64,000 nucleotides of DNA from a virus. Its lineage: Duplodnaviria; Caudoviricetes. The position numbers and the translations under genes were made by a program. Under the pieces are notes generated by a model. The model had not been told where the DNA came from and did no database searches. It worked only from the letters and a program-made list of their open reading frames with translations. This document shows positions 1,985 through 20,063 of the stretch, piece by piece. How positions within the stretch are numbered: the stretch's first letter is position 1; every line of letters begins with the position of its first letter. The DNA lies in the IMG/VR virus record IMGVR_UViG_3300028364_000013. One strand, written 5' to 3'.

Positions 1985-2940
1985 TGGTTTTAAAAGCCTG
2001 AGTTTACAGCATTTATTAGCGTCCTTTAATGACCTTACCCACATCATCTTGCGGTTAATCAATGTATCCACGCACCCTTTCAGGTGGTATACGCCAGTCT
2101 CGATACCTATGGGGTATCATTCCTATCGTGCAATCTAACTCTGTATTTTCCACCTACACTATCTTGCCAGACATATGCGAGCTTTCGTTACAATCGACAC
2201 CCACCTTGCGAGGATGAATGACTCCCTGATTCTGCCGAAGCATCCAGGGTCTGAGAGACCTTTTAATATACACGCCCATGAGACTTTCACTTTTTTTCTG
2301 TTTATAGTAAAAACCAGCCATGCCAAGGCTAATATATACTGCATGAGATATACAGTACGAAGAGACGTGCCCACAGGAGTGGTTTCATAACTTTTTGGTT
2401 ACAAAATGCCACACGCCTCTCTGTTAGTCTATGCTGACCAACAATTAAACCCGAATTACTTTCTACGAATAGTTAAGTAACCAAATCCAAATGAGATGAA
2501 GCCCTTGCGTTTCTTACACGCTCGAACAACACAACTAAGCTTTTCCTTTTCATCAGCCGAAGCCAACTTTTTTTGCAAAATTTCTAATGCTCAACTACCA
2601 TTTTTAATCTCATGATAGTTTACCTTGTCCAGGTAAGTACTCACTTATTGCATAGGTGTCCAACAGAATAAATTCTGAAGGCGAGGGTGACACCCCCTTT
2701 TATAGCTTGTTACCAAACTTTATCTTCCCACAAGGGGCTTGCAATGATTTTCATCACCACGAGACTCTACACAGCCTCAAAATGATTGTTATTTGAATTG
2801 TAAAAGCTGGTTCATGTTACATAACCAATTTAAAAGCGAAGGACTCTGCTATATTTCATACAGTTGAATGTTTGTCCCATTCTCACTTTCCTCACTTACT
2901 CTTACTGTCGAATGGACCTAAACATTTAGACCAATAACAA
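1985..2940 (-). ncRNA. Large structured ncRNA of about 950 nt, GOLLD-like
   Basis: No credible ORF, GC higher than flanks, many short hairpins with GNRA/UUCG loops, own promoter and terminator. 3' part (AGTGTAGG...AGACTGGC...GTGGA...CTCAGGCTTTT) recalls GOLLD 3' domains from memory. Confidence 0.6.
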
Positions 2941-3051: not shown

Positions 3052-3690
3052 TTATTTTCTACCTTTTTCCCAACCTTGTTGAGTATGGTTTTCCAACTCA
3101 TGTTTTTTTATTTTCTTGTTTTCTCCATCTCTGGTAATCCAACAAGTTCCATACTGAGAGTTCTTCCCCCCTTTTCCAAGACCCTTCTTTGATTCGCTCA
3201 TCAATTTCTTTGTCTCTTCTGTATGACTCTTTCCACTCCAATCGTATTGCTTTACCTTGCCTAATACATGTAGTTTTTTCATATTTTTAGAAGCTTTTTC
3301 ACTATGCCACTTAGCATACTCTTTATCTTCCTTTAATTTAATAGTATGTACTTTTCCTCCACGTTTACCACCTTTTGAAGAGGATTTAATATTTAAAAAT
3401 CCACCTTGACCTCCAACCATAAGATTCATACAATCTTTTTTTGCAATCTCATTTAGGTTGACAACCTCCTCCTCTCTCCTCTTCAACTCTTCTCTGGAAT
3501 CTAAAAACTCCAGTATTTCTCTCTCATGGTTTTCTTCACCATGCTTGTTTATGGAATATCTCAGTCTTTTTCCTGAACCCAAATAACCATCTTCTAAATT
3601 GTCTGTTGAGTGCATTCCAATGTAATACTTGCCACTCAGCAAGTTTGTCGTCTTGTAAATGAAGTGAAACTTCTTTTCTTTTCTTGGCAT
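3052..3690 (-). CDS. GIY-YIG homing endonuclease with NUMOD3-like tail
   Basis: IYKTTNLLSGKYYIGMHSTDNLEDGYLGSG; HTEETKKLMSES. Confidence 0.85.
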   Translation of the reverse strand: MPRKEKKFHFIYKTTNLLSGKYYIGMHSTDNLEDGYLGSGKRLRYSINKHGEENHEREILEFLDSREELKRREEEVVNLNEIAKKDCMNLMVGGQGGFLNIKSSSKGGKRGGKVHTIKLKEDKEYAKWHSEKASKNMKKLHVLGKVKQYDWSGKSHTEETKKLMSESKKGLGKGGKNSQYGTCWITRDGENKKIKKHELENHTQQGWEKGRK

Positions 3691-3742
3691 AACCTATCTG
3701 TTTAAAGATAAATAGTACAAAAAAGTACAAAATCGACTAAGG

Positions 3743-3813
3743 GAATCCATACGGGATTCGAACCCGTGCCTCCTGCCGAAAGGCAAGCGCTCTATCCGCT
3801 GAGCTAATGGACA
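3743..3813 (-). ncRNA. tRNA-like RNA whose anticodon loop is a 4-6 nt loop
   Basis: Normal D arm (GCTC..GAGC) and T arm (ACGGG-TTCGAAT-CCCGT); anticodon arm CTTGCC-TTTC-GGCAGG. Confidence 0.6.
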
Positions 3814-3897
3814 CATCACCTTAATATCGTTCTACTAAAACTATCTTCAGGCTCCATTCACAACATTAGTAGGGTTGCTTCAGGACTTTTTTTAAAG

Positions 3898-3997
3898 TGG
3901 CGAAGGGAGGATTCGAAACCTCCGACCCCCAATGCTGTCCATTCTTTCACAAGAACAACTAACACACTGGTGCTCTGACCAACTGAGCTACCTCGCC
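3898..3997 (-). ncRNA. tRNA-like RNA with a 30-nt structured insertion replacing the anticodon loop
   Basis: Acceptor GGCGAGG/CTTCGCC-A; stem CCAGTG/CATTGG encloses TGTTAGTTGTTCTT-GTGA-AAGAATGGACAG. Confidence 0.7.
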
Positions 3998-4039
3998 AAA
4001 TGATGATGTAGTCACTTACGCAGCAACACCATCAATTTT

Positions 4040-4426
4040 TTAGACTTTCAAAAAAGGCATAACCCCTTTCAATACATCTAAATGGGTCAAGATGACATTT
4101 GCATTAGCATCAGCTTTCAGCAGAACCTCAAGTGATGGATAATACGTTATATCTCTTTCTTCCATTTCCTCCCACCCATAACATGAACAGTGACCACCTG
4201 ATACCGCAGCCTATTGCCCTGAGGCAGTGAACCCGTGTTGAGTAACCCACTCTTCGTAATCATCAAGTTGATAACCATCAGCCATTACAACCCATAGTAC
4301 ATCTCCTAAAGCGAATTGAATTCTGTCGATGTTCTCAATACCTGTTTCCAAGTATTTAGGACCACCCCAGTTATTCATTCCTGCTTGAGCCGAAAGTGCT
4401 TCTTCAAATGTTTCAAATTTTTTCAT
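4040..4426 (-). CDS. Hypothetical protein (128 codons) with one in-frame TAG at 4211-4213
   Basis: ...TQHGFTASGQ*AAVSGGHCSCYGWEEMEERDITYY... continues in frame for 56 more codons to TAA. Confidence 0.6.
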
Positions 4427-9093: not shown

Positions 9094-10181
9094 TTATGAG
9101 AATCCATTGTTCTTCTTCCACTGCTCATGCTTTTGCTCAACACTATACATGAAAGAACCTCCTGGAATTACCTTCGCATCTGGGAATCCGTTTTCTGTTG
9201 TCAAAACAGATTCTGATTCTTTTATTGCACCAGTAAACTTTCCAGCACCTTTCTTATTTTCAATATTACCTGTTGAAGGATTGTATTAAAATTAATTTTT
9301 ACTTTTTTTAGTTTATTTATTAATAAACCAAATATGAAACCTAAATATACAAACGAACAACTTAAACATGCTAAGTCTTTTGATAAATTACCATTAGAAT
9401 GTTATGAATGTAATAAAGATTTTTTTATAGCAAAGACGCACATCAAAGATGCTAAAAATCCAAATTGCAAAAGAACTGGTGAATTTTGCTCAAAACAATG
9501 TTTGTCTTTATCAAAAAAAACAAAAGCTAAATATAATTGTCATAACTGCGGAAAAGAATGTGAAAAAAAGATTTCTCAAATAAAACTATCAAAATCAGGT
9601 TATAATTTTTGCTCAAGGAGCTGCACATCATCTTATCATATGAAAAACAAAAAATACGGCACAAATAGGTCTAAATTAGAACAGTGGATTGAAATTCAAT
9701 TAACAAAATTATACCCAAATCTTAAAATATCTTATAATGACAGGCAAATTTTAAATCCTTTGGAATTAGATATATTTATCCCAGAATTGTCAATAGCATT
9801 TGAATTAAACGGCATTTTTCATTATGAACCCATATTTGGACCTGAAAAGCTAAATAAAACTCAAACTAAAGATTTCAACAAACACAAACTTTGCTTTGAT
9901 AAAAGGGTGGATTTATGTGTAATTGACACATCAAGTCAAAAATATTTTAAAGAACAGACATCTAATAAGTTTTTAAATATAATTATAAAAATTATTCAAG
10001 AAAGATTTTAATTCTATGTAACTTATTTGAACAAATAATCCGTTCTAACACCACCCTTAGGCTCAATAAACTCTACCATATAAGACTGTTCAGTTCCATC
10101 ATTCATATGAACAATCAAGTTACCAGTTTCATCTCGGTTCACTAAAAAATTCTTTCTCACCTCTTCTCTCTTGTCTTTCAT
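9094..10181 (-). pseudogene. Conserved jumbo-phage hypothetical gene split by an antisense endonuclease insertion
   Basis: N-half MKDKREEVRKNFLVNRDETG...VEFIEPKGGVRTD (10181-10030); C-half YNPSTG...FTGAIKESESVLTTENGF... (9290-9094). Confidence 0.6.
9334..10011 (+). CDS. Zn-finger plus PD-(D/E)xK (Vsr/DUF559-like) putative homing endonuclease
   Basis: CxxC repeats, FCSRSC, ELDIFIPELSIAFELNGIFHY; paralog of 34815-35516. Confidence 0.8.
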   Translation: MKPKYTNEQLKHAKSFDKLPLECYECNKDFFIAKTHIKDAKNPNCKRTGEFCSKQCLSLSKKTKAKYNCHNCGKECEKKISQIKLSKSGYNFCSRSCTSSYHMKNKKYGTNRSKLEQWIEIQLTKLYPNLKISYNDRQILNPLELDIFIPELSIAFELNGIFHYEPIFGPEKLNKTQTKDFNKHKLCFDKRVDLCVIDTSSQKYFKEQTSNKFLNIIIKIIQERF

Positions 10182-18060: not shown

Positions 18061-18360
18061 CTAAAACAACCATATAGCATCACAAAACCCATACTTTATA
18101 CGAGCCTCTTTCCAAAATTCTGCTTCTGCAAATTCAATACATTGGGTTTTAACTTCAAATTTTTCTAACCAACGTACTTTATCAGTAATTTCACCTCTTG
18201 CAATTCCATCACGCTTGTCGATGTAAACAAATGGTTCTACAATAAATTTACGTTTACATAAAAAAGTACGGCACATAACATTGTATAAACCCAATGCCTT
18301 TAGTGCTTTTTTGATATGATATTTCATAATTTTAATTTTAGTGTTGTTAATTAAGTTCAT
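18061..18360 (-). CDS. Cassette-borne hypothetical protein
   Basis: Fills cassette 2; reading frame starts inside attC3. Confidence 0.5.
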   Translation of the reverse strand: MNLINNTKIKIMKYHIKKALKALGLYNVMCRTFLCKRKFIVEPFVYIDKRDGIARGEITDKVRWLEKFEVKTQCIEFAEAEFWKEARIKYGFCDAIWLF

Positions 18361-18563
18361 TGATAGGCACTGTGTTTATACCTACCGTTACCTGCAAGTT
18401 TTAAAAAGAAAAAAGCCCTTCCCATCAACCGACATGCTATACAAACACCCAGCAATGCTATGACTTTCAATAAACTCAATCTTGTGACCAGCAATTTCAT
18501 AAACTTTAATTTCATCAAGTTCAAACTCATCTTTCTTTCCAAAAAGTCTTTTCCAAAAACCCA

Positions 18564-19367
18564 CTATTTTCTGTTCATAAATTCATATCCATACCACTTA
18601 TACTTGCTGTAATCAACAAGTTCTGCAGGCTTCCAGGTTTTTGTCCAGTGCTCATCAGTTTTAACGTGACCCTGGCGAACCAGTTTGAACAAATTGTTGA
18701 ATTCGTTATGATGCACGTCAAGAACTCCAGCGTTTCTACTATCGTATCCTTCAATGTTTCTAATCACAAATCCTTCAGATGAGTCAGCTCCAGTATCAAG
18801 GTCGTATCCACCAAGCAACCCTGGAGTATCAACACTTTCAACCCAAGTCATTCCCAGATTCTCTTTTAACCAATTGTCAAGCAAAACATCTTCATCAACA
18901 TCATCACGATAAAAATCTTTCAATGTTGTTTTAATAGGAATCACTGGAACCGTTGGAAAATCAAACATGGCAGCGTAGAACTGGACTTCCTCCCAAGATA
19001 ACCACTTGCCATTTTCTCTGGCAGCGAATACATAATAATAAGATTCAAGATTCTTGTAAGCAACAGAGTGAATTCCATACATGTTCTCGCCAAACAATTC
19101 AAGCTTACCAAGGTCATTTTTAATCAACTCCCAGCGTTCACGCATTGGCTTATCCCAAGGATGTGCTGTTGGAGTAACATGACTTCTGGCAAATACTCCT
19201 TCTTTTTTGAAGTGGTTATTTTGTCCATCAAGCTTTTCTGTCATTACAAGCTCTGGCATTTCAGCAAAAGCCTTGACGTAACCCTTAGGCATGAAGCGGT
19301 CATCAGATGTCGTTCCGAGCGAAATCTTTGCATGAAGGCATCTTCCATATTTATCCTAGCTACTCAT
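18564..19367 (-). CDS. RNA ligase (Rnl2-like ATP-dependent nucleotidyltransferase) with in-frame TAG at codon 4
   Basis: MSS*DKYGRCLHAKISLGTTSDD; TEKLDGQN, FGENMY, EGFVIR, FKLVRQGHVKTDEHW. ATG overlaps the upstream TAA (TAATG). Confidence 0.8.
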
Positions 19368-19555
19368 TATTTTAACTTTTTCTTAATCCTACAAAGTTCG
19401 AGATATACCTCTTCAACCTCTTCTATAAATTCATCACTATAATCTCCGCTTCCCCATGTTTCTGGGTCCAGAAATTCTCTTAAATCCTTAACAGCATCAC
19501 GAACATTAGCTCTGACACTTTCTATTTTCTCATCTGCTGTTGTAGTTGCACTCAT
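19367..19555 (-). CDS. Small hypothetical protein
   Basis: Coupled on both sides (ATGA, TAATG). Confidence 0.65.
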   Translation of the reverse strand: MSATTTADEKIESVRANVRDAVKDLREFLDPETWGSGDYSDEFIEEVEEVYLELCRIKKKLK

Positions 19556-20022
19556 CTTCTTATTCCTTTTTTGTATAATTTATAACTATTCTCTACATAT
19601 AGATAATCGTAGTTGTCAAGGCACCTATAAAGATTCGTTCTCAGAATATTTATATCATACTTGAAGTGTTCTTCGATTCCTCTGGTTATGTCATCAATTA
19701 TAACAAAATAATCAACATCATTATCGTCAATCCAGTGCTGAATTTCATCAGCTCTTCCATTGTCAAGTTCTGGTGTTAACCCGATTACTTCAGCTTCAAT
19801 TCCTCTTTTTTTGAATAGGTCTTGAAATACTTCTAAGCTTCTCGTTTTTCTCCAGGTTGATGAAACTACAATCTTACCATCAATGTGATTGGTTATTTTA
19901 TTTAATGCATCAATTGCTGCAGGTTCAAAAAGGTGACCATCAACATCTCTATTTTCTGTTGAGTTTCCCATCTTTAACCAAGAAGCCAACACTCCGTCTA
20001 TATCTAAAAATACTATATTCAT
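19552..20022 (-). CDS. HAD phosphatase of the Swiss-Army-Knife RNA-repair type (HAD_SAK_2-like)
   Basis: IVFLDIDGVL, IVVSSTWR, RADEIQHW, FVIIDD. Confidence 0.8.
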   Translation of the reverse strand: MNIVFLDIDGVLASWLKMGNSTENRDVDGHLFEPAAIDALNKITNHIDGKIVVSSTWRKTRSLEVFQDLFKKRGIEAEVIGLTPELDNGRADEIQHWIDDNDVDYFVIIDDITRGIEEHFKYDINILRTNLYRCLDNYDYLYVENSYKLYKKGIRR

Positions 20023-20063
20023 TATACGCAAATATAATTAAAATGTTCTTTTCGTGAAAGGGT

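Follow-up and report, generated by a model that had tools for sequence, protein, structure and literature searches.

Results

A tRNA-shaped gene with a closed anticodon arm

The 64,000-nucleotide stretch of DNA analysed here (the window) belongs to a 117-kb phage contig, about 53% complete, that carries approximately 30 tRNA genes, an amber-suppressor tRNA gene, and a gene for GOLLD RNA. The minus strand at positions 3898 to 3997 holds a tRNA-shaped RNA gene of 100 nt, in which RNA position i corresponds to window coordinate 3998 − i. This gene matched the Rfam tRNA model RF00005 over its full length (model positions 1 to 71; 46.6 bits, gathering score 29; E = 8.8e-7 in the 64-kb window), with 29 extra bases falling within the anticodon loop, and scored 108 bits with our own covariance model, R1, described below. 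The RNA begins and ends in a 7-bp acceptor stem (GGCGAGG/CUUCGCC; 5′ strand 3991–3997, 3′ strand 3899–3905), and the discriminator A73 at 3898 is followed by A-C-U-U, CCA being absent from the gene. The D arm (GCUC / AGUUGGUCA / GAGC; 3972–3988) contains G18 and G19, the anticodon stem has 5 bp (CCAGU/AUUGG; 5′ strand 3966–3970, 3′ strand 3929–3933), and the variable loop has 5 nt. The T arm (GGAGG / UUUCGAAU / CCUCC; 3906–3923), previously described as intact, is present, but its loop, UUUCGAAU, has 8 nt in the window copy only and 7 nt in the five homologs presented below.

The initial annotation had read this locus as a tRNA with a 30-nt extension in place of the anticodon loop. The Rfam match and the arms read from the sequence confirmed such an extension on the minus strand; the length given for it was wrong, as the two strands of the anticodon stem enclose 32 nt, compared to 7 in a normal tRNA, and 25 of the 32 (3935–3959) are inserted at position 37/38. 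In the consensus fold obtained with RNAalifold, the bases G32 U33 G34 U35 U36 A37 (3960–3965) do not form an open loop. G32 pairs with C38 (3934) and U33 with a G (3935), while G34 to A37 make up the 4-nt side of a 4×1 internal loop opposite an A (3936). The insert continues with a first helix (3957–3959 with 3937–3939), a 1×2 loop, and a second helix (3951–3955 with 3942–3946), and the hairpin ending in GTGA that the annotation had placed in the anticodon loop is indeed there, closed by the cap GUGA at 3947–3950. Counting the G32-C38 and U33·G pairs, the stem grows to 7 bp, and the whole anticodon arm takes the form of a long irregular rod: beyond the stem come the 4×1 internal loop (GUUA against one purine), a helix of 3 bp, the small loop, a helix of 5 bp, and the four-base cap. 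The gene therefore combines canonical acceptor, D, and T arms with a capped helix, broken by the 4×1 and 1×2 loops, where the anticodon loop should be.

The whole RNA has a minimum free energy of −38.3 kcal/mol (z = −2.9), and none of 200 shuffled sequences folded equally well. By default, ARAGORN called no gene at 3898–3997; with its intron option, it reported a tRNA-Asn(gtt) carrying a 25-nt intron after A37 (37/38), in agreement with the earlier proposal that removing 25 nt at this position would leave a GTT loop. As encoded, the RNA has no 7-nt decoding loop with U33 and a purine at position 37, the 32 nt folding as a closed rod. A class II tRNA with the hairpin as its long variable arm was rejected because no 17-nt anticodon arm closes ahead of the hairpin.

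Genomic neighbourhood

The gene upstream, P0002 (4040–4426, minus strand), encodes 128 amino acids with one in-frame TAG, and its stop codon lies 42 nt ahead of the tRNA-like gene. No promoter- or terminator-like site was found between the two on the minus strand, where scans for sigma-70 promoters and terminators were uninformative. Judging from the sequence, P0002 and the tRNA-like gene are probably co-transcribed. A second tRNA-shaped gene (3741–3813, minus strand; Rfam 51.3 bits) follows 84 nt downstream and has a 6-nt anticodon loop, CUUUCG, which can also be drawn as a 6-bp stem with a UUUC loop; ARAGORN reports a 2-base anticodon for it. This neighbour is kept in the related contig L030 (3852–3924).

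The gene for GOLLD RNA is further downstream, with its conserved 3′ domain at 1995–2421 (minus strand; Rfam RF02032, 169 bits). Between the tRNA-like pair and GOLLD, the window phage has an open reading frame resembling GIY-YIG/NUMOD3 homing endonucleases (3052–3690, minus strand), identified by three Pfam matches that are all below the curated cut-offs. It was seen at this place in the window phage only, the equivalent place in L030 being without a called gene. The window also encodes an RNA ligase, as had been noted before, and we located it at 18357–19367 (minus strand) by an Rnl2-type nucleotidyltransferase domain (PF09414, 81–83 bits) in a gene with two in-frame TAG codons. Adjoining the ligase gene is a gene for a HAD phosphatase of the RNA-repair kind known as 'Swiss Army Knife' (HAD_SAK_2; 19552–20031, minus strand; PF18143, 94.5 bits).

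Homologs in related uncultured phages

Homologs were collected through the neighbouring 518-aa protein, by taking its homologous proteins and then the contigs that encode them. Beyond the window copy, this route gave five distinct homologs, all from related uncultured phage contigs, at L030:4012–4109 (with the same sequence in L031), L044:650–748, L045:218–317, L036:537–636, and L039:1941–2039 (identical in L042). Each of them lies on the same strand as, and just past the end of, the same small operon, with the shared GOLLD leader or the gene itself downstream; GOLLD is present where the contig extends far enough, as in L030 and L039. The homologs scored 46 to 53 bits with the Rfam tRNA model, all above the gathering score, and the intron option of ARAGORN also called Asn(gtt) with a 25-nt intron in L031. 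An intron-less allele was not seen in any relative. Two further contigs, L001 with a relative of P0002 and L037 with a GOLLD leader, have no such tRNA-like gene, and the more distant L032 and L033 carry at the same place an amber-suppressor tRNA gene together with a different long tRNA-like RNA that has a UUCG-capped arm.

Exact and degenerate DNA pattern scans of viral, metagenome, and genome contig collections found no related sequence, the 14 matches among the metagenome contigs being all unrelated. A blastn search of the 100 nt against GenBank phages returned only half-length, generic tRNA matches, and no relatives of the 518-aa neighbour or of the Pth2 locus described below were found in viral contigs. 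A weak similarity to the tRNA-Asn genes of haloarchaeal viruses (E = 0.3) covers the 5′ half of the gene, as far as A37. The insert sequence occurs a single time in the genome, even with 5 mismatches allowed, and a mobile repeat was rejected on this ground.

Compensatory changes maintain the inserted hairpin

We used the window copy and the homologs in L030, L044, L045, L036, and L039 as the covariation set. Over these six sequences, which are few and related, standard pairs filled 96.2% of the cells of the model-based alignment, compared to 46% to 61% in controls with slid partners. Double changes were seen at 14 pairs in all. Five of these belong to the inserted hairpin, which has 8 pairs, and one of the five (alignment pair 41-59) occurs as U·G, G-C, A-U, and C-G. 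The acceptor stem has 7 of 7 standard pairs in all six sequences, with double changes in 4 pairs; the anticodon stem shows double changes at alignment pairs 31-66 and 32-65, and the four pairs of the D arm are invariant. RNAalifold on a MAFFT alignment independently gave the same structure, with the cloverleaf, G32-C38, U33·G, the 4×1 loop (GUUA opposite A or G), the 3-bp helix, the 1×2 loop, the 5-bp helix, and the four-base cap. The covariation of the insert hairpin among homologs indicates that the element is functional, and the compensatory changes in the insert that had been proposed as a check on it are present.

The strands of the anticodon stem are 32 nt apart in five of the six sequences and 31 nt apart in L039. 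The caps read GUGA, GUAA (twice), UUAU, and UUAC, and L045 has a 6-nt loop, UUUACU. Thus, the GNRA cap claimed in the initial annotation holds for the window copy, with GUGA, but is not conserved among the homologs; since the caps vary while the helix covaries, it is the helix that is under selection and not a GNRA motif. The motifs GUGUUAG and AC(A/G)GC flanking the hairpin are invariant in five sequences, L039 having CAGAGAG and CCAU instead. Compensatory changes preserve both cloverleaf and hairpin in L039, yet its CAGAGA, in place of the GUGUUA of the others, makes a 7-nt loop with U33 impossible at any cut position. The covariance model R1, built from the six sequences, gave its own members 88 to 111 bits, and its next-best matches were the sealed mimics of Pth2 cassettes (approximately 60 bits), followed by ordinary tRNAs.

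Related tRNA-like genes in the same phage

The phage carries five tRNA-like genes that have a canonical D arm of the GCUCAGUUGGU(N)AGAGC type and abnormal anticodon arms. In addition to the two genes described above, these are a sealed tRNA mimic with an 8-bp, UUCG-capped helix as its anticodon arm (34552–34628, minus strand; R1 62.6 bits), an odd tRNA-like gene with a 74-nt insert (34148–34295), and another with a 9-nt anticodon loop (35574–35649). All three of the latter lie in a cassette headed by a gene for a Pth2-type peptidyl-tRNA hydrolase (35674–36102, minus strand; PF01981, 38.3 bits). The gene at 3898–3997 is not directly behind Pth2.

Outside the anticodon arm, the body of the 3898–3997 RNA is identical to that of 34552–34628 at 49 of 58 positions, the best value in the genome, and to two other odd tRNA-like genes at 45 of 58, compared to 17 to 18 of 58 for the two canonical tRNA-Asn(GUU) genes of the phage. 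An ortholog of 34552–34628 at L047:4653–4729 has 8 entirely different pairs in its helix and a GAAA cap. The sealed paralog 34552–34628 cannot be read as intron-bearing. By its sequence, the 3898–3997 RNA is a GOLLD-adjacent paralog of the sealed-anticodon mimics in the Pth2 cassette of the phage.

A bacterial host

The phage encodes a protein with sigma-70 region 2 (71 bits) and an FtsH-type protease. Among the control genomes, both families matched only the 10 bacterial ones, indicating that the host is bacterial. Relatives of the phage carry tmRNA, PCRF, and PG_binding_1, although PCRF and PG_binding_1 are absent from the window's own record. One relative had been binned as a Nanoarchaeota MAG; an archaeal host was rejected in view of the sigma-70 and FtsH proteins of the phage and the PG_binding_1, PCRF, and tmRNA of its relatives.

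Discussion

Less likely readings: spliced intron, processing signal, or cargo

Faced with a choice between a mini-intron and a decoy, as the initial annotation had put it, we favour the second over the first. Under the intron reading, which we regard as doubtful, the locus would be a genuine tRNA-Asn(GUU) gene interrupted at 37/38 by a short intron spliced by proteins; an endonuclease of the phage or the host would cut the intron out, and the phage ligase and HAD phosphatase would join the exon halves. The insert occupies precisely the canonical intron position, and ARAGORN, with its intron option, accepts it as such in both the window copy and L031. In five of the six sequences U33, GUU, A37, and C38 are invariant and the insert is exactly 25 nt long while the hairpin drifts and covaries, a pattern that an intron-bearing tRNA-Asn would also show. 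The ligase and the HAD_SAK_2 repair phosphatase could seal exon halves, and the weak likeness of the 5′ half to haloarchaeal virus tRNA-Asn points in the same direction. L039, however, retains the whole design with an anticodon loop that is impossible, and the body of the RNA is unlike the two normal tRNA-Asn genes of the phage and closest to a sealed mimic. Removal of the insert would leave G32 and C38 as a Watson-Crick pair, giving a 6-bp stem with a 5-nt loop, where the real tRNA-Asn genes of this genome have C32 and A38. An alternative fold resembling a bulge-helix-bulge (BHB) motif can be drawn in L030, L044, and L036, where all four of its pairs are standard (in L036, two of the four are wobble pairs); L030 and L044 could form the 4-bp central helix perfectly, with a 3-nt bulge on either side. 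In the window copy, this central helix would contain a G·G mismatch, and the BHB fold reaches −1.2 kcal/mol, compared to −10.6 for the extended fold and −12.7 for the minimum free energy. The BHB fold is worse by 4 to 11 kcal/mol in every homolog (+0.1 to −4.0, compared to −8.4 to −10.6 kcal/mol for the extended fold), its helix is 79% paired across the homologs, and its pair 35-59 fails in three of the six; column 59 covaries with hairpin column 41 and not with G34, which is the register of the hairpin and not that of a BHB. The host is bacterial, and the splicing endonuclease family PF01974 matched the archaeal control genomes only, with just a piece of 13.9 bits, below the cut-off and containing a stop codon, in the window's record (G000) and nothing in G001. 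RtcB was not found in the 117-kb record, and since this record is about 53% complete, a phage nuclease may be missing from it. No relative has an intron-less allele, and the open-access full-text literature gave no account of short tRNA introns removed by proteins in bacteria or their phages. It is unlikely that this is a phage tRNA-Asn whose 25-nt intron is removed by a nuclease, the Rnl2-type ligase, and the HAD phosphatase; if it were, the bacterial world would have its first example of a short tRNA intron spliced by enzymes. In that case, the intron might hide the anticodon loop from host anticodon nucleases until splicing, and protein-dependent tRNA splicing in a bacterial system would change the textbook distribution of introns among the domains of life. 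The self-splicing group I introns found in bacterial and phage tRNA genes have a P1–P9 ribozyme core and are usually 200 nt or more in length. A group I intron was rejected here, given an insert of 25 nt and no Rfam intron family in 3600–4300 at E values up to 1.

The location of the gene raises two further readings. The tRNA shape could be a cis-acting processing signal only, recruiting RNase P and RNase Z and setting the 3′ end of the upstream mRNA, with the released RNA having no job of its own, much as mascRNA forms at the 3′ end of MALAT1 and tRNAs punctuate mitochondrial transcripts. A start 42 nt past the upstream stop codon with no promoter- or terminator-like site between, the position at the end of the operon and before the GOLLD unit in all homologs, and the evident dispensability of decoding in L039 are all consistent with this; nevertheless, we find it quite unlikely, because RNase P and RNase Z need just the acceptor and T arms, which leaves no reason for a covarying hairpin of fixed length, an invariant internal loop, or a D arm. 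Moreover, any of the approximately 30 ordinary phage tRNA genes could punctuate the transcript, and L037 does without a tRNA-like gene at this place. We judge it highly unlikely that the RNA serves the GOLLD RNA next to it as partner or cargo, docking to the GOLLD cage by its rod-like arm or internal loop, even though all six homologs have the GOLLD gene or its shared leader downstream of them and L032 and L033 have their different, UUCG-capped tRNA-like RNA at the same place. GOLLD genes lie near tRNA islands, and phage tRNAs have been proposed as possible cargo of the cage (PMC12286853); this adjacency is general, however, and extends to ordinary tRNAs. In addition, L037 has the GOLLD leader without the tRNA-like gene, and the homing-endonuclease-like gene separates the two in the window. 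Finally, a dead tRNA gene broken by a chance insertion might be suspected from the 8-nt T loop of the window copy and the absence of the gene in L037 and L001, but it is hardly credible when six diverged homologs keep every helix, including that of the insert, by compensatory changes and retain 46 to 53 bits on the Rfam tRNA model; the covariation likewise contradicts a pseudogene.

A proposed non-decoding tRNA mimic

The favoured reading is that the gene encodes a tRNA-shaped, selected, non-decoding mimic that occupies or diverts a tRNA-binding factor, a proposal whose chances of being right we judge to be about even. We prefer it to the spliced intron because no anticodon is possible in L039, the nearest paralog is sealed, the G32-C38 and U33·G pairs are conserved, a BHB is unsupported, and the host is bacterial with no endonuclease found. 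Under this proposal, the RNA would share the transcript of the upstream operon, from which RNase P and a 3′ nuclease would excise it in the manner of a tRNA, and a host enzyme would add CCA. The hairpin would stay in the mature RNA, putting the codon out of reach on the ribosome while the full tRNA body is still offered and the Asn-type bases U-G-U-U-A are displayed in a fixed bulge. The look-alike could then occupy or divert a factor that binds tRNA, candidates being a host defence enzyme that targets tRNA or, on the phage side, a Pth2, RNA-repair, or GOLLD factor. The distance of 31 kb between the 3898–3997 gene and the Pth2 cassette counts against the mimic.

Large phages are rich in tRNA genes, and their hosts have a variety of ways to attack tRNAs. 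If non-decoding, the RNA would be a new player in the tRNA conflict between phage and host, as a decoy, a sponge, or a substrate for chemistry at the acceptor end. It would also be the first non-decoding tRNA look-alike consistently beside a GOLLD RNA gene, and so a concrete candidate partner for GOLLD. The open-access full-text literature yielded no description of phage tRNA look-alikes whose anticodon loop is sealed or filled by a hairpin.

Comparison with known systems

Compared to a canonical Asn(GUU) tRNA, the RNA has the same 7-bp acceptor stem, D arm with G18 and G19, 5-nt variable loop, UUCGA T arm, A73, and 5-bp anticodon stem, and five of the six members also share U33-G34-U35-U36-A37. 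It differs in having 32 instead of 7 nt between the stem strands, in the pairing of G32 with C38 and of U33 with G, and in that one member has no anticodon. The archaeal and eukaryal BHB pre-tRNAs are alike in an insert of 25 nt at 37/38 whose hairpin extends the anticodon arm; their two 3-nt bulges and 4 bp are supported here neither by energy nor by covariation, and our phage has a bacterial host with no endonuclease or RtcB found.

Modules of tRNA shape that use tRNA processing or binding proteins without reading codons include the tRNA-like domain of tmRNA, mascRNA, and the bacterial YrlA. The tmRNA domain lacks D and anticodon arms and has G3·U70, and mascRNA comes from eukaryotes, where it is found at the 3′ end of a long transcript; to our knowledge, none of the three combines a complete cloverleaf with an anticodon loop that holds a hairpin. 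Unlike the tmRNA domain, the RNA described here has C3-G70 (G3-C70 in L036) and a full anticodon arm.

Phage RNA repair can counter an anticodon nuclease, as with Pnkp and Rnl1 of T4 against PrrC. Cas13b excises GpU from U33-G34-U35 loops, according to a preprint (PMC13692257). The window phage resembles such anti-nuclease systems in its large tRNA set, RNA ligase, and repair phosphatase, and the mimic shows U-G-U-U, which is cut in tRNAs with GUN anticodons; in contrast to those systems, U33 is paired here and L039 has no U in that strand. By this analogy, host nucleases that cut GUN anticodon loops are a candidate context for the mimic.

The sealed mimic 34552–34628 and its L047 ortholog share with the 3898–3997 RNA a canonical body and an anticodon loop closed as a capped helix. 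The arm of the 3898–3997 RNA differs from those of the Pth2 cassette in being longer and irregular, with a conserved 4×1 loop that exposes GUUA, and its gene is the one adjacent to GOLLD.

Genes around the tRNA-like gene and GOLLD

The main tRNA-like gene is followed 84 nt downstream by a second tRNA-shaped gene (window 3741-3813, minus strand), whose body is 76% identical to genes annotated as tRNA-Asn in Aeromonas phages. The 6-nt anticodon loop of this second gene reads CUUUCG, or can alternatively be drawn as a 6-bp stem closed by UUUC, and the anticodon arm is identical in the counterpart from the related phage contig L030 (L030:3852-3924, minus strand). Between this tRNA-like pair and GOLLD lies a GIY-YIG/NUMOD3 homing-endonuclease-like ORF (window 3052-3690, minus strand; Pfam matches below cut-offs), an insertion present in the window phage only and reminiscent of the tRNA region of T4 with its free-standing seg genes.

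In the more distant relatives L032 and L033, the place before GOLLD (L032:5650-6300 and L033:1050-1288, both minus strand) is occupied by an amber-suppressor tRNA followed by a long tRNA-like RNA and a small ORF. The arm of this long RNA is closed and hairpin-capped, the cap being UUCG in L033. A class Ib aminoacyl-tRNA synthetase gene of the TyrRS/TrpRS type (PF00579) is kept a few kb from the tRNA-like gene in four relatives (L030:9640-10710, L032:13843-14910, L033:8843-9910, and L036:5658-6728, all minus strand); at the equivalent place, the window carries a zf-FCS ORF (9334-10011) instead.

We also observed a 105-nt tRNA-shaped gene in an unrelated viral contig (L007 and L009: 13009-13113, plus strand), where a Met-like CUCAU in the anticodon region is followed by an insert of ~30 nt.

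The Pth2 cassette and the RNA repair module

The Pth2 cassette (window 34148-36102, minus strand) begins with the Pth2 gene, which has a TAG at codon 3, and continues with a tRNA-like gene whose loop has 9 nt. Next come an amber-suppressor tRNA(CUA), short hairpins with ACCA ends, and the UUCG-sealed tRNA mimic. Two more tRNA-like pieces follow, one of them a mini unit of ~57 nt with acceptor and T arms, and after these a tRNA-like gene that carries a 74-nt insert. Most of these units are retained in the relative L047 (L047:4001-4869, plus strand), with different helix sequences and without the 74-nt insert.

An RNA repair module (window 18357-20031, minus strand) consists of an Rnl2-type RNA ligase and an adjoining HAD phosphatase that belongs to the "Swiss Army Knife" type of repair enzymes. 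There are 2 in-frame TAG codons in the ligase gene, and its full-length protein would depend on the amber suppressor.

Host signals

Two proteins encoded by the phage point to a bacterial host: a factor of the sigma-70 family (71 bits for region 2; window 56879-57067, minus strand) and an FtsH-type M41 protease of ~711 aa (window 30076-30597, minus strand). A closely related 90-kb phage contig (P0008 / L047 and L033) was deposited within a "Nanoarchaeota archaeon" MAG (GCA_038044045.1). Its gene content, with FtsH, PG_binding_1, tRNAs of a bacterial-type set, and the Pth2 cassette, indicates that this contig is probably a mis-binned phage.
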